A DNA stretch of 64,000 nt from contig CALXVV010000012.1 of the NCBI GenBank assembly GCA_944392205.1, positions 403 to 64,402 on the forward strand, written 5' to 3'. Each line of letters starts with the position of its first letter. The stretch's first letter is position 1. Position numbers and translations under genes: made by a program. Below the pieces are notes generated by a model. That model had not been told where the DNA came from and made no database searches. It was given only the letters and a program-made list of their open reading frames with translations. Shown piece after piece: positions 6,671-53,984 of the stretch. Origin of the DNA: an uncultured Alphaproteobacteria bacterium. Its GTDB lineage: Bacteria > Pseudomonadota > Alphaproteobacteria > RF32 > CAG-239.

Positions 6671-9600
6671 CTATTTACTGAAGCCTCCTCTGCCCACTCT
6701 TGTTTGGAGAATTTTGGCTGCGACTTCATTTTTGGCCGGAATACTTGTGTATTCGTGATTTCTCAGCATAGCATCCGCCTCTTTAAACCTGCCCTCAACA
6801 ATCTTGGTCGGAACAGAGGTTGCCTCACTGCCATCCATATTGGTCATGGTGAAGTGCGGCACATTGTCTTTGCCAACCCGGATGTTAACCACTCCGTCTT
6901 CGGTAAACATCTTAAATTGAGATGTTCCGTTAAAAATAGAAGTTTTGGTCAGCTCTCCAGGCTTGCACCCGGCCAATGCCGCGGCCTCGTTGACAGTTTG
7001 GTCTGAAAGCGGCGTATAAGGAACAGAAACCATAACCGGCTCTTCATAGGTTTCGGTTACATTCTCGGTTATCTTGCGAAGAGCACTCTTATCATAAAAT
7101 TCGGGAGCTCTTCCATCCGAGTATTGGATCATCATCTCACCGGTTTCTTTATTAATCGTAACCGTTGCATCCTCAGGAATCTGATGTTGGCCGTGAGGAC
7201 CGGAAATCGCCCATTTAACTTCTCCCGGAACTGTCCGCTCAAAGGTGCCGACACCTTCCGTCATCTTTTGCTGATATTCTGGAATATCATATTGGCTCTC
7301 TCCATAGCTCATATCTATGTCAAGTCCCGGTCTAACCGGAGGCAAATCCGTCTTTTTGATATCATTATCAAAATCTACATCTCTGCCCACACTTCCAAAA
7401 TCTTTTCTTGCGACACTTGTCTCAGTCTTGGCCTGGTGCAAGTCGCCTTTACCAGAGCAATCATCGTCAATATGATAGTGAGCCTCATTGCCGGTCCAAC
7501 GGTTGTCTTCCGGTCTGACGTGGCCGGCACCGACATAATAACCACTCCTGCCATAGACCTCACCCGAGGTATCAATAGTTGCTAAGCCCCGATGAATAAT
7601 TTCTTGTTGGACCACATTGACCTCTCCACAATTGATGTCTCGATCAATTAATGTACGAGCCAAATGCGGGCCCAAGTGAGTTTGGAACAGTTTATCTGCT
7701 TCGGCTTTGCTGATGTTGCCTTCCAAGAAACGCTCCCAATCTCCTTCCTTAAAGCCAAGAGAAAGTAACTCTTTATTGAGCTGTATGCGTTGCTGTGCCA
7801 AATTTCCTGAAAAACCGACCTGTTCTCTCAACATATTATAACGATATACGTATTCTGATACGCTCATTCCTTCCGGCTTTCCTTCCAAGAGGCCTTGGCT
7901 GTCAACATCTTTAGCATAATCCAAAAACTCTTGAGCTGATAACTTCATGTTTCCACCATCTGCAGCATCTCGAATTATGATATTATCAAATTTGGCAAGA
8001 CTGCTTCTTGAATCAAACCATGAATCCGAGTGAGCTCCAAATTTCATTTCAATATTGACGGCTCTTTGGAATTTTCCGCCCAGCTCTATTGCGGCGTCTG
8101 CACCGGCTGTATGAGCTTCGGTTCCAGTAACGGTAGCTGCCGTACCACCACTAGTGCTTGTACCGTCGGTTATTGTATTTGTGTCAACCCCATCGGCAAC
8201 AGCATTATTGTCACCAGCACTCGGAACTTCCGGCATTTTGCCCCAGCCTTCGCGCAACGGTGTGGATGGTTGTGCTGAATCCTGCCAATTTTCAGCCCCT
8301 ACCCCGGCAACTCCGGTGTGTGAACGTCCTGCTCCGGTGATTGTGTCTATATGTTCAGCCACATTTGAGTTCAGACGTCTCAGACTCAACCATGATCCAA
8401 CTGCTGAGATTCCTAAGCCAATGTAAAACGAAGTTTTGGCTGCTTTCCATTTACTTCTGTTTTCTTCAGTCGGGCTCTTTTTATATTCCTTTCTGGCAAC
8501 AATCATGGCCGTGGTTTGGGCTGAAATAGAAGATGCCGTGCGTGCTAAACCGGACAATACTCGAGACGAAACCTTATCTAGTCCCATTGTTGTTCCGCCG
8601 GCTCCCAATAAACCTCCGGCAACAGCACCAACCATGCCAAACCAGCTTTGGCGCTTGTAGTCCTTGTCTGTTTTTTTGGTTTGCCATGCAGTCTTCATTG
8701 AATCCCAAAAGCCAATCTTCTCACCTTTTGCTTTGGCTGCCGCACGCTGTTTTTGTGCCTCGGCTACAACCGGCCAAAACCATGCTCCGGCTGCTGAATA
8801 TGCTGCATATGCACCAATGGCTATGGCCCCATATCCTGTTGCGGCAACAGCAAGAGTGGCACCACCGTTAACAATATGTTGCCACTTGTGCTCTTTGATG
8901 TTTTTTACAACTGCACGGCCGATTTCATAGCGTTTGCCCCACAGTGCAACAGCTTTGTCCCTGAAAGAATTTAATCTCTTGCCTAATGCCGACTTACCTT
9001 TACCAAGTTTTCCCTCCAAAACATCTTTGAACTTGGTGACCTCTACATCCGTATCGGCACAAGCGGTGATGATATCCTTAACTCTTATTTGAAGCTTTTT
9101 CCCGCCTTCAATCAGGCTCGCTATAAAATCATCTGCCGCCTTAGCCTTTCTTTCCAGGTAAGCTTTGAATTTGTTTTCATCTTTCTGCTCTTCTGCCGTG
9201 GGCAATTCAAAAGTGGAGGCAACACCTGCCATACCCAACTTGGCCACAAATAAATCTTTGACTTTTTCGGTCAACTGTTTGTGTTGCTCGCTCTTGGAAG
9301 CCATTAAATATTTCAGGTTGCCAACATTTTCCTGGTATGCCTCTAATTTGGCTGCCTCAAACATCTGAGAAAGGTTCTTGGCCTTGTTTTCCTCATCCAC
9401 AACGGAGCCGTCATCTTCAACTATATCGACATTGGCCAAAACCTGCTCTAGCTCTTTGAAATCTTCGGAAATCGTGCCGTCCTTGGCATAAAAATTTATA
9501 CGCTCAAGATTTTCATCTAAGCTCTTGTCATTCTTGCGCAAAACCTCTATTTCTTGGTCGAGACCATTCTCTTCCTCATAAGACTTCAATACCTCGTCTA

Positions 9601-10147
9601 ACTTCTTTTGAACCTCGGCTCTCTTTTTTTCATCTGTAATGTGACTTACAAAACTTTTGGCAGATTCAAGCTCATGAATATCTACGGATTCTTTACCTTC
9701 TATCAGTTTATCCATCTTTTCGGCAATGGTGTTATTTAATCTGCTTTGAGCATATTTTATCTCATCGCTTTGCGGAGCGATATTATACAGCGCCTGAAGT
9801 TCCTCAGCCTCCTTAAAGCTCATCTCCCCGAAGTCCAGTATTTTTGCTGTTTCCTCAGCTCTCCACTGAACATCTTTCTCCCATTTTTCTTCTTTGGGCG
9901 TTCCTTCAAAGATGCCTCTTATCTTGTCAAATTGGCGGTAGTCCGCACCCGTACTTTCCAAGCTCATGTCAAAACGCTCATAAAAGCCTTCTACCAAGTC
10001 TTTTTGGGTGGGGTCATTCCTTAAAAGCCGAACAGCTTCCAACAGTTCATCGTAACTGTAGTTTACAAAAGAACTTGCGCCCAAGATCTCTTGTGCTTCT
10101 TGAGTTGTCATCTTTTTAGTCTGTTGTATTTTTTCATTTTCTGCCAT
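6671..10147 (-). CDS. Large (1158 aa) protein of unknown function: coiled-coil N-terminal third, central hydrophobic/Gly-Ala-rich segments, Thr/Gly/Ala-rich linker, unknown C-terminal domains
   Basis: Uninterrupted 3.5-kb ORF bounded by terminators. No signal peptide. Hydrophobic stretches include GGATLAVAATGYGAIAIGAYAAYSAAGAWFWPVV, WFGMVGAVAGGLLGAGG and FYIGLGISAVGSWL. I recognise no family. Confidence 0.8.
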   Translation of the reverse strand: MAENEKIQQTKKMTTQEAQEILGASSFVNYSYDELLEAVRLLRNDPTQKDLVEGFYERFDMSLESTGADYRQFDKIRGIFEGTPKEEKWEKDVQWRAEETAKILDFGEMSFKEAEELQALYNIAPQSDEIKYAQSRLNNTIAEKMDKLIEGKESVDIHELESAKSFVSHITDEKKRAEVQKKLDEVLKSYEEENGLDQEIEVLRKNDKSLDENLERINFYAKDGTISEDFKELEQVLANVDIVEDDGSVVDEENKAKNLSQMFEAAKLEAYQENVGNLKYLMASKSEQHKQLTEKVKDLFVAKLGMAGVASTFELPTAEEQKDENKFKAYLERKAKAADDFIASLIEGGKKLQIRVKDIITACADTDVEVTKFKDVLEGKLGKGKSALGKRLNSFRDKAVALWGKRYEIGRAVVKNIKEHKWQHIVNGGATLAVAATGYGAIAIGAYAAYSAAGAWFWPVVAEAQKQRAAAKAKGEKIGFWDSMKTAWQTKKTDKDYKRQSWFGMVGAVAGGLLGAGGTTMGLDKVSSRVLSGLARTASSISAQTTAMIVARKEYKKSPTEENRSKWKAAKTSFYIGLGISAVGSWLSLRRLNSNVAEHIDTITGAGRSHTGVAGVGAENWQDSAQPSTPLREGWGKMPEVPSAGDNNAVADGVDTNTITDGTSTSGGTAATVTGTEAHTAGADAAIELGGKFQRAVNIEMKFGAHSDSWFDSRSSLAKFDNIIIRDAADGGNMKLSAQEFLDYAKDVDSQGLLEGKPEGMSVSEYVYRYNMLREQVGFSGNLAQQRIQLNKELLSLGFKEGDWERFLEGNISKAEADKLFQTHLGPHLARTLIDRDINCGEVNVVQQEIIHRGLATIDTSGEVYGRSGYYVGAGHVRPEDNRWTGNEAHYHIDDDCSGKGDLHQAKTETSVARKDFGSVGRDVDFDNDIKKTDLPPVRPGLDIDMSYGESQYDIPEYQQKMTEGVGTFERTVPGEVKWAISGPHGQHQIPEDATVTINKETGEMMIQYSDGRAPEFYDKSALRKITENVTETYEEPVMVSVPYTPLSDQTVNEAAALAGCKPGELTKTSIFNGTSQFKMFTEDGVVNIRVGKDNVPHFTMTNMDGSEATSVPTKIVEGRFKEADAMLRNHEYTSIPAKNEVAAKILQTRVGRGGFSK

Positions 10148-22881: not shown

Positions 22882-24375
22882 ATGGAGATTTCAGAACTGC
22901 ATTTGCAAAAAATGCGTTATCCGAATAATGATTTTGACAGCTATTTTATCACGGCACAAGAAGTGGCTGAGGTTTTGGCTGTGGGGAAAATTCCGCATAT
23001 TACTTTGCCGCAAAGCTCAAACGGCCCAACCGTTGCGGTTTTGATGGCGGTTGAAAAACACCCGGACCGCGAAGAGCCTGACTACTATGTGCCTGAATTT
23101 TATGTAGAGGCTATCACGCAAAATGGCGGAAACCCCGTTTTTATCGGTTTTGATAAAACAGCAGAACAACTGCAACAAACCATGCCGCAGGCCATATTAT
23201 TGGTGGGTGGGGATTTTGCCTTTCCGCCCGCTTGGTTGGAAGAAGGCATCCAAGCCCATGGCGGAAATCTGCGCCGAGAAAAAGCCTATGAGACCATGAT
23301 AACTTATGCCAAAGAGCACAAACTGCCGCTTTTGGGTATTTGCGCCGGAGAGCAGGTTTTGGCCGGAACTTTGGGGGCAAAACTTTGCATGGTCAAAGGG
23401 CACCGTGCCTCCTTGGATGATGATGCCCACCTGATTAACATTGTTCCCCACACTCTGCTCGCCAAATTGTGCGGGCTAAAAATGGCTAAAGTCAACTCTA
23501 ACCACCACATGGCTGTATCTGCTAAAACAAGCGGAGATTTTGTTGTCTCGGCCACGGCAGAAGACGGCACCATTGAGGCTATTGAGCCTAAAGACCCGTG
23601 GCATTATTTTGTTTTGGGCGTGCAATGGCACCCCGAGCGCATGGTAAAAAAAGAAGATTTTCTCACGGATAGAATCTTCAATGGTTTCATGAAAGCGGCT
23701 CGCGGCGGCTTTGTGCATAATCATGAGGCCATCCCCTTTTCTCAGGCGCCGATGGTTGAGATTGACGACCCGCATTTTATTGTTGATATGATGTATGCCA
23801 AACCCCAAAACCTCTCCGGACAGCCGGTTTATGAGCTTTGCGGAATCGGCAACCATGCCTATGTGCGGATTGAATTGTGGGAGGCCCTAAAAAAGCTTAT
23901 TCCCTGGCTTGAGGAACATCAGCTCAAGCTCAAAATATGCGATGCCTTCCGCCCGATGAGTGCGCATATGGCGCTCAAAGAGGCAATCCACGAGAAAGGG
24001 CCCGGAATTTTTGCCAGCCTTGCGCAAACATCTAAACACTGCCACGGAACCGCAGTTGATGTCTTGCTCACCGATATGAACGGCAACGAGCTTGCCTACC
24101 CCACAAAAGTTGACTGCTACCGTCCTGATTTGGCAGCCAAAATCCAAAAAGGCGACACAAAAGATTTTTATGAATACACCAAATGCGGCCGGCATGACTA
24201 TTTTGCTCCCAACCTGGAAAAAGAAATTGCCAACCGCGAACAGCTTAAAAATCTTATGGAAAGTGTCGGCCTCATCTCTTGGGTGGGCGAATGGTGGCAC
24301 TATGAACTGCCCGACGAGTTTAACCTTGTTTACCCACCGGTCGAGCGCCGGCCAGGCAAGCGCCTGGAGGCATAA
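22882..24375 (+). CDS. Two-domain enzyme: N-terminal class-I glutamine amidotransferase-like peptidase C26 (gamma-glutamyl hydrolase type) fused to a C-terminal D-alanyl-D-alanine dipeptidase (VanX/DdpX, peptidase M15D)
   Basis: N-terminal domain: LPLLGICAGEQV (nucleophile Cys elbow) and VLGVQWHPE (His/Glu). C-terminal domain: ICDAFRP, SKHCHGTAVD (SxHxxGxAxD zinc motif) and EWWHYE. The last ~13 codons and the stop codon lie inside a repeat element. Confidence 0.85.
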   Translation: MEISELHLQKMRYPNNDFDSYFITAQEVAEVLAVGKIPHITLPQSSNGPTVAVLMAVEKHPDREEPDYYVPEFYVEAITQNGGNPVFIGFDKTAEQLQQTMPQAILLVGGDFAFPPAWLEEGIQAHGGNLRREKAYETMITYAKEHKLPLLGICAGEQVLAGTLGAKLCMVKGHRASLDDDAHLINIVPHTLLAKLCGLKMAKVNSNHHMAVSAKTSGDFVVSATAEDGTIEAIEPKDPWHYFVLGVQWHPERMVKKEDFLTDRIFNGFMKAARGGFVHNHEAIPFSQAPMVEIDDPHFIVDMMYAKPQNLSGQPVYELCGIGNHAYVRIELWEALKKLIPWLEEHQLKLKICDAFRPMSAHMALKEAIHEKGPGIFASLAQTSKHCHGTAVDVLLTDMNGNELAYPTKVDCYRPDLAAKIQKGDTKDFYEYTKCGRHDYFAPNLEKEIANREQLKNLMESVGLISWVGEWWHYELPDEFNLVYPPVERRPGKRLEA

Positions 24376-48026: not shown

Positions 48027-48296
48027 CTATTTTTGATGATTGTGATACTTTATGACCATCAACAATATCGGAAAGGAAAAACACAAACACAGACTGTTGA
48101 ACACCACCATCTGCACAGAACCCAGATATCCGCCGTATATCACCCAGCAAAGAACACCCAAGTTATAAATAATGTAGGTGCCTAAAGAAAAACCTCTGAC
48201 ATCTTTGGTGCGAAAAGTCTTGATTGCCTGCGGCATAAAAGAAATTGCCATGCAGACACCGGCAAAATAGCCGATAAATTCAAATAGGTAATTCAT
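48027..48296 (-). CDS. SemiSWEET/PQ-loop small sugar transporter-like protein
   Basis: 89 aa with three helices and the PQ motif (SFMPQAIKTFRTKD). Confidence 0.7.
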   Translation of the reverse strand: MNYLFEFIGYFAGVCMAISFMPQAIKTFRTKDVRGFSLGTYIIYNLGVLCWVIYGGYLGSVQMVVFNSLCLCFSFPILLMVIKYHNHQK

Positions 48297-48449
48297 AATT
48301 TTTTCCTTTCTTGTTTGCCAAACGTCTCAATGTAGCAAAAAAACTCTAAAATTTGGTAAAAACGTAAATTTAGCTTCAAAAGAGGTCTTGACTTTAAATA
48401 CAATATTCGTATATATTTGGATATGTTTAACGTACATTTGGAGGAATTT

Positions 48450-49448
48450 ATGGATAAAGATTTGAGCTTTGCAGAAGATTTGGAACTGAAATTAGACGGC
48501 AAACGCCCGATTAGGCGTGAAAACCCTAAAAAAGGACAAAGTCGGTGGTATTATGTTGACCCTCGTGAAAGAGATGAGGATTTTACACTCTTATCGCAGA
48601 TGAAAACCATAGATGTACCAAGCCCCAACACGCCTAATCCGGCTCTGCAACAGGTGATGTTTGAAGATGCTGAAAACAATCCTGATAAATATTATATTTG
48701 GCGCACCGTTGGCGATGACAAAGTCAGAGATTCTCATGCCGAGCGTGAAGGCTGTATTTTTAGTTGGGATGATGCTCCGGAAGGCGGGCATCCGGGAGAA
48801 GACTACAACTGCCGCTGTATTGCCGAACCCTACGTTCCCAGAAAAGACTCTTCTGAATCCGATGAACAATGGCGGCAACGCTTGCTTACAACGATGAAAG
48901 AATACTTACTTGAAGAAGAAGACTTGAAAAATCATATTTATTTAGACACCAAGGGATTTAAGACTGTTGGAGCCGGAAAAAATATTGATAAATGGGGAGA
49001 TTTTAAGAAAATTAATTGGGAGGTTGACGGCAGACCGGCAACAGAAGAAGAAAAATTGGCAGGATTTGAGCGTTATGAGGAATTAAAACAACAAAAATTC
49101 TTCGGACCAAATGTTACCTCTGATTTTTTTGAAGACAAAAGCAATCTCCGTATCAGCGAAAAAGAGGCAGAGCACCTTTTGGAGCAACATATTAAAAATG
49201 ATTTGAATAAATTGGAAACATATGTTTCCGGATTTAGAGACTTTCCGTTTGGGCTACAACAAGTTTTGCTTGATATTCGCTACAATACAGGGAATGCCGA
49301 CAGAAGAAATTGGCCAAATTTATATGAGGCTATTGATAAACGAGATATCCGCGGTATGGCCAACAATGTTAATCGAAAAGATGTTGGAGAGAGCAGAAAT
49401 CAATGGGCAAAAGAGACTATTCTTTCAATTAGAAATTGGGGATATTAA
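48450..49448 (+). CDS. Fusion protein: phage Mu-F/SPP1-gp7-like core motif plus a T4-type (GH24-like) lysozyme domain
   Basis: A strong GGAGG RBS lies before the ATG at 48450. The MuF core is WRTVGDDKVRDSHAEREGCIF...DYNCRCI. The lysozyme N-lobe EEEDLKNHIYLDTKGFKTVGAG has Glu, Asp and Thr spaced exactly as E11/D20/T26 of T4 lysozyme ([20 protein letters not shown]). The later LLDIRYNTG and NQWAKE resemble the T4L C-lobe. Confidence 0.8.
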   Translation: MDKDLSFAEDLELKLDGKRPIRRENPKKGQSRWYYVDPRERDEDFTLLSQMKTIDVPSPNTPNPALQQVMFEDAENNPDKYYIWRTVGDDKVRDSHAEREGCIFSWDDAPEGGHPGEDYNCRCIAEPYVPRKDSSESDEQWRQRLLTTMKEYLLEEEDLKNHIYLDTKGFKTVGAGKNIDKWGDFKKINWEVDGRPATEEEKLAGFERYEELKQQKFFGPNVTSDFFEDKSNLRISEKEAEHLLEQHIKNDLNKLETYVSGFRDFPFGLQQVLLDIRYNTGNADRRNWPNLYEAIDKRDIRGMANNVNRKDVGESRNQWAKETILSIRNWGY

Positions 49449-49840
49449 TCCTTTGGGATGAAAAACCAGGAAATTCCGTTAATTTGCCCGTTGGTGTTGG
49501 CAGTATATTCTTTAACCCTCCATTTTGCATAGCTGCAGCGGTCTTTGCAGGGAAATATTTGATAGGTATAAATATACGTTACGTCTCTGTTGCTCAGTGG
49601 ATTGAAAAACGTGCACTTGAGCGAGACTTTTTCCAAGGCGTTTTCTAACAGCTCACATTCCTCTATTTGCTCATATCCATCATTGGAAATACGGACCCGG
49701 GTCGGAGAAAGTTGAGTTGTCCATGCCATTCGTGAAATTGGTTTCAACGTCTCGTTAAATAACGGATTTACAAATTCTTCCGATGAAAATATCCGGCAAG
49801 ATGATACAAACACTACTAAAAACAACAATAACTTTCTCAT
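49445..49840 (-). CDS. Small exported (lipobox-like) protein, paralog 1 of 3
   Basis: MRKLLLFLVVFVSSC signal/lipobox, AAGGAGG RBS, 131 aa. Near-identical to 49909..50304. Confidence 0.75.
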   Translation of the reverse strand: MRKLLLFLVVFVSSCRIFSSEEFVNPLFNETLKPISRMAWTTQLSPTRVRISNDGYEQIEECELLENALEKVSLKCTFFNPLSNRDVTYIYTYQIFPCKDRCSYAKWRVKEYTANTNGQINGISWFFIPKD

Positions 49841-49861
49841 GTGAAACAGACCTCCTTATTA

Positions 49862-49884
49862 GATAGACATCAGGATTTTTTCAT
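49862..49884 (-). pseudogene. 23-nt remnant of the 5' end of a second copy of the 157-aa gene (duplication/deletion scar)
   Basis: 49862-49908 (GATAGACATCAGGATTTTTTCATTATGACATTATCCTTTCTGACAAACTAATC) matches 50816-50863. The latter is the start of gene 50366..50839 plus the spacer to paralog 3. Confidence 0.7.
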
Positions 49885-49908
49885 TATGACATTATCCTTT
49901 CTGACAAA

Positions 49909-50304
49909 CTAATCCTTTGGGATGAAGAACCATGCAATTCCGTTAATTTGCCCGTTGGTGTTGGCAGTATATTCTTTAACTGTCCATTTTGCATAGCTGC
50001 AGCGGTCTTTGCAAGGGAATATTTGATAGGTATAAATATACGTTACGTCTCTGTTACTCAGCGGATTGAAAAATGTGCACTTGAGGGAGACTTTTTCCCA
50101 GGCGTTTTCTAACAGCTCACACTTTTTTATTACCTCATATCCGGCGTTGGAAATACGAACCCGGGTCGGAGAAAGTTGGGTTGTCCATGCCATTCGTGAA
50201 ATTGGTTTCAACGTCTCGTTAAATAACGGATTTACAAATTCTTCCGATGAAAATATCCGGCAAGATGATACAAACACTACTAAAAACAACAATAACCTTC
50301 TCAT
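49909..50304 (-). CDS. Small exported (lipobox-like) protein, paralog 2 of 3
   Basis: 131 aa, with 8 amino-acid differences from paralog 1 and the same RBS and leader. Confidence 0.75.
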   Translation of the reverse strand: MRRLLLFLVVFVSSCRIFSSEEFVNPLFNETLKPISRMAWTTQLSPTRVRISNAGYEVIKKCELLENAWEKVSLKCTFFNPLSNRDVTYIYTYQIFPCKDRCSYAKWTVKEYTANTNGQINGIAWFFIPKD

Positions 50305-50365
50305 GTGAAACAGACCTCCTTATTAGATAGTTTGATTTTAATAATAGGCTTTAAAATTTGGCCGT

Positions 50366-50839
50366 TTAATTTGCAGTTAGTATCTTTTTCGTATAAATTA
50401 ACATTCTCAAAACAGCGTCTCGTACAAGGTTTTCGACTTCTGTCGAACTCAGTCTATCCGCAACTGAACCACAGAATAAATGCTCATTCTCACTATAACA
50501 AGCATTGCTATAATTGTACATTGAGGCATTCCATTCATAAGCCGCAGAAATAAACTTCGAAAAAGCTTTTTTCATTTCTGTTTCTTTTTCCGCATAAAAT
50601 AACTCAAATGTTTCGTTGGCAACTTTTTGATAGCATTTGACTAATTCATTATTAAGCTTTTGTATTTTTCTGTTGTCTTCTTTTTGCTCTGCCACAGCCA
50701 AATTCTGCTTTTGTGCCAGCAAACAGTTATCAACCGCCTTGCCCAACCTCTCAATATCTGAAAGTGATTTATTGGTATCAGCAAGAGAGGCTGACGTTGC
50801 AAAAAGTAAAAATAAGATAGACATCAGGATTTTTTTCAT
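50366..50839 (-). CDS. Secreted helical four-Cys protein (157 aa), unknown function
   Basis: Signal peptide MKKILMSILFLLFATSASLA. It is embedded in the paralog array. There is only a very weak pattern resemblance to DUF1311/LprI-type proteins. Confidence 0.7.
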   Translation of the reverse strand: MKKILMSILFLLFATSASLADTNKSLSDIERLGKAVDNCLLAQKQNLAVAEQKEDNRKIQKLNNELVKCYQKVANETFELFYAEKETEMKKAFSKFISAAYEWNASMYNYSNACYSENEHLFCGSVADRLSSTEVENLVRDAVLRMLIYTKKILTAN

Positions 50840-50863
50840 TATGACATTATCCTTTCTGACAAA

Positions 50864-51265
50864 CTAATCTTCTGAAATAGAGAACCAAGTAATTCCGTTA
50901 ACTTGCCCATCGGTGTTTGCCATATATTCTTTGACTTTCCATTGCGCATAGTTGCAGAAATAACCTTTGCAAGGGAATATTTGATAGGTATAAATATACG
51001 TTACGTCTCTGTTGCTCAGCGGATTGAAAAATGTGCACTTTAGAGAGACTTTTTCCCAGGCGTTTTCTAACAGCTCACACTTTTTTATTACCTCATATCC
51101 GGCGTTGGAAATACGAACCCGGGTCGGAGAAAGTTGGGTCGTCCAGCCAGTTCGTGAAGTTGGTTTCAACGTCTCGTTAAATAACGGATTTACAAATTCT
51201 TCCGATGAAAATATCCGGCAAGATGATACAAACACTACTACTAAAAACATCAATAACCTTCTCAT
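50864..51265 (-). CDS. Small exported (lipobox-like) protein, paralog 3 of 3 (more divergent C-terminus)
   Basis: 133 aa. The N-terminal two thirds are almost identical to paralog 2, and the C-terminal third diverges (CKGYFCNYAQWKVKEYMANTDGQVNGITWFSISED). Confidence 0.75.
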   Translation of the reverse strand: MRRLLMFLVVVFVSSCRIFSSEEFVNPLFNETLKPTSRTGWTTQLSPTRVRISNAGYEVIKKCELLENAWEKVSLKCTFFNPLSNRDVTYIYTYQIFPCKGYFCNYAQWKVKEYMANTDGQVNGITWFSISED

Positions 51266-51325
51266 GCGAAACAGACCTTTTCTGCTATTATGTATTTAAT
51301 GTTTGCTCATCTTGCACTTTTGAGC

Positions 51326-53327: not shown

Positions 53328-53984
53328 TTAACGGCGAACCGAGCAACTTCCGCACCCGGATGTCTTGGGTGCCAAGGTTGGCGCCTGAACTTGCGTTGTC
53401 GGGCCTTCTGAAAAATCGGCTTCTTCAACTTCTACGAAACCGCAAGGTGTTTCAACCATTCCGTCTTTTCTACGGCCTCTTTCTCGAGAGCGGGTGTCAA
53501 ATGTGCGCTGGTTATAATTTGCCTCTTCTGCTGAGACATTTAGCCCCAGCAAAATCTCTATATCATCCTGATCTACCGGAATCTTTACCTTTACCGGGCG
53601 ACCACTAAACGTTGTTTCCCTATCATCAACATCTATTTTGCCGCTGGCAAAATAGCTCCTCTTGCCAACAAACTCCGGCGGTCCTTGCTCAATATTGGTA
53701 TAAAAACTGAAATCCACCGCAGTATCTGCACTATCCTGCAATCTGGTCAGCCTAAACTGCGGAGTGATAACCGCATAGCGGCGAGAAGTACCATCTACCA
53801 CATAGCAATAGCCCTCGTAGCCTGTCAGCTCCACCCGGAAATTATCTCTGTAATTGACTATTTGCGTGAGGTAGGCCTCGCCCCCCGGAATTTTAACATT
53901 GGGGCAACGAAAATCTTCTGCTTGGTAACTTGCCGTGCAGGAAGCAATCATCAATAATGCTGTCAGCCATACGTATCTTTTCAT
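53328..53984 (-). CDS. Lipoprotein, unknown function
   Basis: MKRYVWLTALLMIASCTAS (lipobox ASC). 218 aa. Confidence 0.65.
   Translation of the reverse strand: MKRYVWLTALLMIASCTASYQAEDFRCPNVKIPGGEAYLTQIVNYRDNFRVELTGYEGYCYVVDGTSRRYAVITPQFRLTRLQDSADTAVDFSFYTNIEQGPPEFVGKRSYFASGKIDVDDRETTFSGRPVKVKIPVDQDDIEILLGLNVSAEEANYNQRTFDTRSRERGRRKDGMVETPCGFVEVEEADFSEGPTTQVQAPTLAPKTSGCGSCSVRR

Follow-up and report, generated by a model that had tools for sequence, protein, structure and literature searches.

What is the core of a phage head-morphogenesis protein, fused to a lysozyme-like domain, doing among cellular genes in a bacterial chromosome? The question is raised by a gene of an uncultured alphaproteobacterium (GTDB lineage RF32; CAG-239), from which we analysed a continuous stretch of 64 000 nucleotides of contig CALXVV010000012.1 (the window). 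A reading of the DNA made without database searches (the sequence-only reading) had described the product as a MuF core joined to a T4-lysozyme-like domain, outside any prophage, and had compared it with the polymorphic toxins that use MuF domains as carriers. The biological role of MuF toxins has been called unknown, and only Apk2 and Bxa have been studied (PMC11699363). We consider it likely, on comparative sequence evidence, that the gene encodes an interbacterial polymorphic toxin and that the four genes converging on it are its immunity repertoire. On this reading the island is a variant of the MuF toxin class, with a minimal N-terminal module, a phage-free chromosomal site, cell-wall payloads and usually convergent candidate immunity genes for exported proteins.

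A minimal MuF module joined to a predicted muramidase

The protein has two modules, with the junction at residue ~134. The N-terminal module scored above the curated thresholds for MuF proteins: 53.1 bits against Pfam Phage_Mu_F (PF04233; gathering threshold 29.6; E = 6.6e-14) and 48.7 bits against TIGR01641 SPP1_gp7 (cut-off 39.65), together with a match to PHROG 324 (head morphogenesis; E = 7e-25). The PF04233 match was limited to 56 amino acids (aa 69–124), which cover profile positions 55–110 of 112. Residues Y82, W84, D89, R93, H96, G101, P110, G113, P115, G116, N120, C121, R122 and C123 of this core are invariant or nearly so, while aa 1–75, ahead of the core, are family-specific (GQSxWYYxDPR...IDV...PNPxL). 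Modelled alone, the module had a predicted local distance difference test (pLDDT) score of 80.6. A fold search of the PDB with this model gave no match (best E = 2.2), and a Foldseek search of BFVD showed a resemblance to predicted phage minor capsid/MuF proteins over ~64–85 columns. The MuF assignment therefore stands for the C-terminal core, which is preceded by the family-specific extension of 75 aa; a full-length MuF domain (~250–320 aa) was looked for and not found, the whole module being 134 aa. We refer to it below as mini-MuF.

By sequence profile the C-terminal half remained below threshold, with a weak match to Pfam Pesticin (PF16754; 15.7 bits, threshold 25.8; E = 0.015); six relatives match each of PF00959 and PF16754, with E as low as 5.5e-7. 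The assignment is upheld by the fold and by the conserved catalytic Glu, Asp and Thr. A phmmer search of the PDB aligned aa 151–195 to residues 5–49 of T4 lysozyme (T4L), and in the HMMER alignment E157, D166 and T172 are in register with E11, D20 and T26, the spacing that the sequence-only reading had pointed out. Across 49 aligned homologues, E157 and D166 do not vary, and conservation of T172 is 90% or more. The AlphaFold2 (AF2) model built from this alignment had a pLDDT of 87.2, and every one of the best 50 PDB matches listed for it contains a T4-lysozyme-fold or pesticin domain (probability 1.0; template modelling (TM) scores of 0.58–0.67 normalised to T4L). The matches include T4L itself, engineered T4L fusions, pesticin (4exm, 4arq and 4epf) and the lysozyme domain of T4 gp5 (7cn7 and 2z6b). 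The C-terminal half is thus predicted to have the T4-lysozyme/pesticin fold with its catalytic Glu–Asp–Thr retained. The 332-aa protein has no signal peptide or hydrophobic N-terminus.

Exchange of the toxin domain between conspecific strains

In a conspecific genome (locus L001; 94–96% nucleotide identity and identical synteny), the same fba–SemiSWEET–tkt position is occupied by a protein, P0007, whose first 134 residues are identical to those of the window toxin, after which comes a GH108/PG_binding_3 lysozyme domain. The two haplotypes cease to be homologous at 48851, the domain boundary, and homology resumes at 50365, the 3' end of a gene for a 157-aa exported protein. The exchanged unit is therefore the toxin domain plus two genes for small lipoproteins (family c1) on one side and the GH108 domain on the other. 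Comparison of the fba–tkt interval with that of a related genome, as the sequence-only reading had proposed, thus revealed a C-terminal domain swap precisely at the domain boundary.

Where the toxin has the GH108 domain, the 157-aa gene lies immediately beside it and converges on it; both haplotypes retain one further c1 copy beside tkt. With a 157-aa gene in the window strain and a c1 copy in the GH108 strain, each therefore holds a candidate antidote to the other's toxin. We read the 157-aa gene of the window as probably an orphan immunity gene for a GH108-type toxin because it directly adjoins such a toxin in L001 and L014. Its product is also weakly related (E = 1e-3 to 2e-5) to proteins encoded downstream of GH108-type toxins in five other contexts. 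A separate idea, that it is an LprI/DUF1311-type lysozyme inhibitor, was dropped for want of Pfam support.

Across four conspecific loci, the N-terminal module differed from that of the window by 0–1 non-synonymous and 0–4 synonymous codon changes; it is under purifying selection. When the window was compared with locus L015, there were 1 non-synonymous and 4 synonymous changes in this module and 11 non-synonymous and 6 synonymous changes in the toxin domain; among the non-synonymous changes in that domain are E155K and D158N, next to the catalytic Glu, E157. The c1 copies at five loci are mosaics of two patches (NDGYEQIEEC..NALEK versus NAGYEVIKKC..NAWEK), and the c1 paralogues (window 49445–51265; L001, L003, L014 and L015) also carry two alternative C-terminal segments. 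Such mosaics suggest that members of the array have undergone gene conversion and that their specificity has diversified among alleles.

One module, many toxin domains and matched partners

A protein search returned 140 clusters, nearly all from metagenome-assembled genomes (MAGs) of Alphaproteobacteria, and a one-genome-per-species scan returned 131 relatives; 80 loci were retrieved for neighbourhood analysis, and the Pfam domain repertoire was taken from 64 complete members. Many of the clusters share the N-terminal module alone (50–100% identity over the first ~40% of the protein) and have other C-termini. The family ranges over MAGs from gut and rumen, Rickettsiales and Micavibrio, and it extends to Rhodobacterales in culture. 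Cultured carriers include Aliiroseovarius zhejiangensis KCTC 42443, Cognatishimia sp. SS12, Lutimaribacter pacificus DSM 29620 and Roseinatronobacter thiooxidans ALG1. The full 134-aa module was found in the gut and rumen Alphaproteobacteria, while members from Rickettsiales, Micavibrio and Rhodobacterales have the core alone, still N-terminal, followed by a 150–300-aa extension.

Among the complete members, the C-termini related to the cell wall were Pesticin, Phage_lysozyme, GH108, VgrG3-like_C, SLT, YkuD, Tlde1, GH46 and PG_binding_1, and those that are nucleases were colicin E3 (‘Cytotoxic’), colicin D and colicin E5. Such a repertoire on one N-terminal module is, at the level of predicted domains, the signature of a polymorphic toxin family. 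The T4L-like domain turned up in other settings as well: P0081 (17 contigs) has it behind a non-MuF N-terminus, P0031 joins it to a divergent MuF-like core, and in P0022 it stands by itself. It has therefore been shuffled among carrier modules.

Clustering of the neighbours within ±10 kb of the 80 loci revealed no recurrent machinery or secretion-system gene. The recurrent neighbours were small genes immediately downstream of the toxin: c1 (32 genes at 25 loci, 30/32 convergent), c2 (~271 aa; 9 loci, all convergent), c3 (found at 9 loci; its members have hydrophobic starts that look like membrane helices by eye) and c6 (~200 aa, co-directional with the toxin). Toxins of the window type were followed by c1 in 8/8 cases and those of a second T4L subtype by c1 in 4/4; a third toxin subtype was followed by c2 (8/8) and another by c6 (4/4). 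The c1, c2, c6 and 157-aa proteins all start with signal peptides or lipoboxes. The toxin subtype thus predicts its exported or membrane partner, and we regard these partners as candidate immunity proteins.

Overlapping 3' ends were found in 23 of 45 convergent pairs. Beside hslVU, a 66%-identical orthologue of the window toxin (P0002) has two convergent c1 genes downstream (55% identity, E = 1e-47) and keeps the same 4-nt toxin/c1 overlap (L005, 8184–8187). With such tail-to-tail overlaps, transcription of the toxin and that of the immunity gene may interfere with each other. At several loci toxin/immunity pairs stand in tandem, together with orphan toxin modules truncated at the N-terminus.

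As a separate observation, one locus (L107, 1–5319) has a mini-MuF toxin ~5 kb from a 4205-aa protein and a ShlB/POTRA two-partner secretion transporter. These two-partner secretion genes form a second, unrelated toxin-type system in the neighbourhood.

Gene content and expression signals of the window locus

The features of the locus are collected in Table 1. Upstream of the toxin lie rpe and genes for a response regulator, a ferritin and an FAD protein, then fba and SemiSWEET; downstream are tkt and genes for a tRNA methyltransferase and a GGDEF protein. Twenty more genes across the window are likewise cellular. No phage or gene transfer agent (GTA) structural family was matched by Pfam among the 40 window open reading frames (ORFs) scanned, and tblastn of the window with phage proteins from a related locus (L010) found nothing, in agreement with the sequence-only reading that the toxin has no other phage genes around it. 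Its position between fba/SemiSWEET and tkt, facing small exported proteins, was also as described; there are four such genes, and the array is better regarded as likely immunity genes, one of them an orphan for a different toxin.

Table 1. Features of the toxin locus (window coordinates; a full stop marks features without a strand)
Feature	Position	Strand	Remarks
Low-GC island between SemiSWEET and tkt	48200..51300	.	33–44% GC versus 47–54% in the flanks
Promoter-like TTGACT-18-TATATT	48388..48417	+	Upstream of the toxin gene; 10/12 consensus positions; weak evidence
Shine–Dalgarno GGAGG	48440..48444	+	5 nt before the toxin ATG; sequence read directly
Toxin gene	48450..49448	+	ATG 48450, stop 49446–49448; 332 aa; mini-MuF N-module and T4-lysozyme-like C-domain
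N-terminal module, aa 1–134	48450..48851	+	Conserved across strains with different toxin domains; homology to GH108 haplotype stops at 48851
MuF/SPP1-gp7 core, aa 69–127	48654..48830	+	Pfam, TIGR01641, PHROG, residue conservation, Foldseek BFVD
T4-lysozyme/pesticin-like predicted muramidase domain, aa ~138–332	48861..49445	+	Profiles, residue conservation, AF2 model, fold search
Catalytic motif	48918..48965	+	Codons E157 48918–20, D166 48945–47, T172 48963–65; equivalent to T4L E11/D20/T26
Swapped cassette	48852..50364	.	T4L-like toxin domain and two c1 genes; a 528-bp GH108/PG_binding_3 domain instead in L001–L004 and L014
c1-family lipoprotein, copy 1	49445..49840	-	131 aa; lipobox VSSC; candidate cognate immunity protein
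c1-family lipoprotein, copy 2	49909..50304	-	131 aa; 8 residue differences from copy 1, grouped at 54–69
157-aa exported protein	50366..50839	-	Signal peptide; probably orphan immunity gene for GH108-type toxin
c1-family lipoprotein, copy 3	50864..51265	-	133 aa; in both haplotypes; directly downstream of tkt, same strand

The ORF was correctly placed by the sequence-only reading, a ribosome-binding site precedes it, and both motifs that the reading quoted are in the protein. The promoter fared otherwise: in place of the proposed TTGACT-16-TATATA (48387–48414) we found the match with an 18-nt spacer listed in Table 1. Promoter-like sites numbered 6 compared with 8.1 ± 2.4 expected from shuffled sequence, i.e. 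there is no enrichment, and the match was discarded as evidence. No LexA box of the GAAC/GTTC type was seen in the region upstream of the toxin.

The toxin and first c1 genes share 4 nt (TTAA, 49445–49448) tail-to-tail, without a terminator between them. All four exported-protein genes converge on the toxin and are co-directional downstream of tkt, so that read-through could make the c1 genes constitutive. Neither the three c1 lipoproteins nor the 157-aa protein had a Pfam match, and the c1 family had no sequence relative in the PDB.

Four ORFs elsewhere in the window are worth recording in their own right. A 256-aa ORF (39609–40379, +) matches Pfam SAA (serum amyloid A) above the gathering score (52.8 bits, E = 5.6e-14), a domain that is unusual in a bacterium. 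For a 1158-aa ORF (6671–10147, -), between alanine racemase and histidine phosphatase genes, Pfam gave nothing at E <= 1e-5. A 218-aa ORF that resembles a lipoprotein (53328–53984, -), immediately downstream of the neighbour of tkt, also lacks a Pfam match and is kept in conspecific strains. Lastly, a 497-aa ORF (22882–24375, +) joins Peptidase_C26/GATase to a C-terminal Peptidase_M15 (D-Ala-D-Ala dipeptidase) segment, an uncommon cell-wall-related peptidase fusion.

Relatives in phage head modules

The window gene does not lie in a prophage head-morphogenesis or packaging module; a minority of its relatives do (L010–12, L034, L037, L044 and L045). Phage contexts were judged from the Pfam annotation of 11 contexts and from tblastn with the L010 phage proteins; a PHROG scan of 94 large neighbouring ORFs matched 117 families, was uninformative and was not used for the counts. 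Phage-type loci made up 4 of the 80 genome loci. The clearest case is P0108, a mini-MuF–GH108 protein encoded in a temperate phage. Along that phage an S24 repressor and a tail protein come first, then the portal, a 518-aa ‘amidase’ and GroES; the mini-MuF toxin follows, and after it a convergent 160-aa gene, TerL and the major head protein. P0108 and its counterparts at L034, L037, L044 and L045 have the entire 134-aa module and are encoded among head genes that include portal, TerL and major head protein; all of them again have a convergent small gene. At L010, the 518-aa protein (PHROG ‘amidase’) and the GroES homologue of the related temperate phage (4180–5998) lie between the portal and the mini-MuF toxin.

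Among the chromosomal members, the mini-MuF gene of Aliiroseovarius zhejiangensis lies between lysC and ptsP. A scan of IMG/VR gave 13 hits. In 12 of them, canonical MuF-like proteins, the core lies towards the C-terminus, and in one it is N-terminal; viral databases therefore leave the chromosomal family unexplained. Literature searches on MuF together with GTAs returned nothing relevant, and the multilocus RcGTA paper lists no MuF-like component, so that a link between GTAs and mini-MuF toxins is speculation.

A model for toxin action, and its alternatives

The polymorphic-toxin character first suggested for this gene is supported by the conspecific domain swap, the repertoire of swapped domains, the subtype-specific exported partners and the phage relatives in head-morphogenesis modules. 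We also looked for what the sequence-only reading had said would overturn it: profile support was above threshold for the MuF part and below it for the lysozyme half, the catalytic residues were retained, and neither a prophage nor a GTA cluster was seen among the 40 window ORFs scanned. In the model that we propose, the toxin would be harmless in the cytoplasm of its producer because it lacks a signal peptide. An enzyme without a signal peptide whose partner is periplasmic would have to reach the periplasm from outside the cell. It would be delivered to the periplasm of neighbouring cells and there cleave the glycan strands of peptidoglycan, while periplasmic c1 lipoproteins would bind and block it, protecting kin; the 157-aa protein would protect against the GH108 variant of sister strains.

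How the toxin might be delivered is a separate matter. The mini-MuF module could dock it at the portal inside capsids, either of a temperate phage or of a GTA-like particle encoded elsewhere in the genome, and the toxin could be ejected alongside the DNA into the target envelope. We tentatively rank such capsid loading in trans as the most likely route, at rather less than even odds, because the phage-borne relatives carry the same module in a head-morphogenesis cluster near the portal gene. Alphaproteobacteria are a clade in which GTAs are common. A broader version, in which mini-MuF is a portable capsid-loading tag for chromosomal toxins and Alphaproteobacteria use phage-like particles uncoupled from a phage genome, is more doubtful; if true, cell-wall hydrolases and nucleases would be injected into neighbours without the matching periplasmic immunity protein.

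Several points weigh against this account. For the toxin itself, the match to Pfam Phage_lysozyme (PF00959; 19.8 bits, E = 1e-3) falls just under the gathering threshold of 22.3. For delivery, the ~200-aa N-terminal portion of canonical MuF proteins is absent, portal, terminase and capsid genes were not found among the 40 window ORFs scanned, 10 of the 11 Pfam-annotated contexts are chromosomal, 76 of the 80 loci are without a related phage module, and an internal capsid protein would have to be released in the periplasm and not in the cytoplasm. The precedents also differ: in a 2017 survey, 96% of MuF toxins were in prophages or their remnants (Jamet et al. 2017, PMC5576092), and those described have MuF domains of ~300 aa and act in the cytoplasm (PMC5576092, PMC11699363).

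The main rival to capsid delivery is a soluble bacteriocin like pesticin or colicin M, released by lysis or in vesicles, with mini-MuF as the receptor-binding and translocation domain that would take the muramidase through the outer membrane of the target, and the convergent periplasmic proteins as Pim/Cmi-type immunity. The three pesticin structures among the top structural matches, the Pfam Pesticin match, the colicin E3, D and E5 nuclease domains in the family and the lack of linked delivery machinery at most loci all fit this proposal, as does the orientation of the genes, since colicin M and pore-forming colicins have immunity genes on the opposite strand. We nevertheless consider it unlikely. 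The N-terminal module is homologous to a capsid protein and not to any colicin T or R domain, and relatives with the entire module lie near portal genes in phage head modules; moreover, colicin nuclease domains occur across every class of polymorphic toxin and are not specific to one route. One conserved segment, K-[TE]-I-D-V, is loosely reminiscent of a TonB box, but it is predicted as a strand within a folded domain (pLDDT ~85) and not as part of a disordered N-terminus, and for that reason we keep it only as a weak point in favour of the bacteriocin. Nor was there a lysis or release gene or an upstream LexA box, and the island is chromosomal and not plasmid-borne.

Two other explanations are less likely still. 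If a secretion system encoded elsewhere exported the toxin, whether contact-dependent or of another kind (type VI (T6SS), type I (T1SS), type IV (T4SS) or other), mini-MuF would be a recognition or adaptor domain; the C-termini do overlap strongly with T6SS periplasmic effectors (VgrG3-like_C, Tlde1 and muramidases), and it is typical of T6SS effector/immunity pairs that the toxin lacks a signal peptide and the immunity protein is a periplasmic lipoprotein. We judge this improbable, given that the toxin showed no trafficking domain (PAAR, VgrG, MIX, Rhs, LXG or other), that no secretion-system gene recurs within ±10 kb of the 80 loci and that the sole recurrent machinery context is the phage head module. 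The gene could also be what is left, domesticated or in decay, of a virion-associated lysin, without an antagonistic role and descended from a phage MuF–lysozyme fusion that helped DNA to cross the cell wall, or an accessory autolysin. This we find very improbable. Phage-borne relatives do lie near the portal gene, and it is well established that peptidoglycan hydrolases in virions can help DNA to enter (Iyer et al. 2017), yet the gene is intact, its catalytic residues are conserved and its N-terminal module is under purifying selection, and the same two-gene module recurs in at least 10 unrelated chromosomal contexts. Cassette swaps with matched exported partners and orphan immunity genes would not be expected of a remnant; nuclease domains, which the module also carries, are of no use in crossing the cell wall, and a protein that stays in the cytoplasm for want of a signal peptide cannot work as an autolysin.

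Comparison with known systems

The toxin shares with MuF toxins an N-terminal MuF-homologous module, variable C-terminal toxin domains and small adjacent genes that are likely to confer immunity, and some mini-MuF relatives are likewise near the portal gene in a prophage head-morphogenesis module. It departs from them in having a ~55-aa C-terminal core with a new 75-aa extension in place of a 250–320-aa MuF domain. Most mini-MuF members, including the window gene, are chromosomal without nearby phage genes, and their payloads are mostly cell-wall enzymes predicted to act in the periplasm, with exported candidate immunity proteins. Their candidate immunity genes are usually convergent, overlapping the toxin tail-to-tail, and their host range is the Alphaproteobacteria. 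Neither lysozyme nor peptidoglycan is mentioned in the text and supplements of the 2017 MuF survey (PMC5576092).

Pesticin of Yersinia pestis, with its immunity protein Pim, offers a T4-lysozyme-fold killing domain C-terminal to a separate N-terminal module (4epf and 4arq), and both pesticin/Pim and colicin M/Cmi combine periplasmic action with a periplasmic immunity protein, as predicted here. The N-terminal module is a MuF core in our case and a TonB-box/FyuA-binding domain in pesticin, no TonB box being established here; and, unlike both bacteriocins, the mini-MuF gene is chromosomal rather than plasmid-borne, with polymorphic C-terminal domains. T6SS pairs (Tse3–Tsi3, VgrG3–TsiV3 and Tlde1–Tldi1) also combine cell-wall enzymes lacking signal peptides with periplasmic or lipoprotein immunity partners, VgrG3-like_C and Tlde1 domains occur in the mini-MuF family, and orphan immunity genes are common to both; mini-MuF toxins, however, have no T6SS trafficking domain or linked T6SS genes. 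Virion hydrolases such as T7 gp16 and T4 gp5 are lysozyme-type enzymes that a phage particle carries into the target envelope, and the T4 gp5 domain is among the fold matches (7cn7 and 2z6b). These are phage-encoded and essential to the entry of one phage, are not polymorphic and have no immunity partner.

Implications

MuF toxins are the least understood class of polymorphic toxins and have been treated as strictly prophage genes with cytoplasmic targets. The locus reveals a large alphaproteobacterial branch of the class, with at least 131 genomic loci in a species-representative set and 140 protein clusters, that is distinctive in its carrier cut to 134 aa, its mostly chromosomal genes and its mainly cell-wall payloads with exported candidate immunity proteins. 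It also provides new candidate families of lysozyme inhibitors (c1, c2, c6 and the 157-aa family), which have no Pfam or PDB relatives, and delimits the smallest conserved MuF element, the part that any mechanism of delivery has to recognise. In cultured strains that carry these genes, the possible delivery of protein toxins by phage or GTA particles can be examined directly; should the toxins prove to be delivered without capsids, the MuF core would have a second function.

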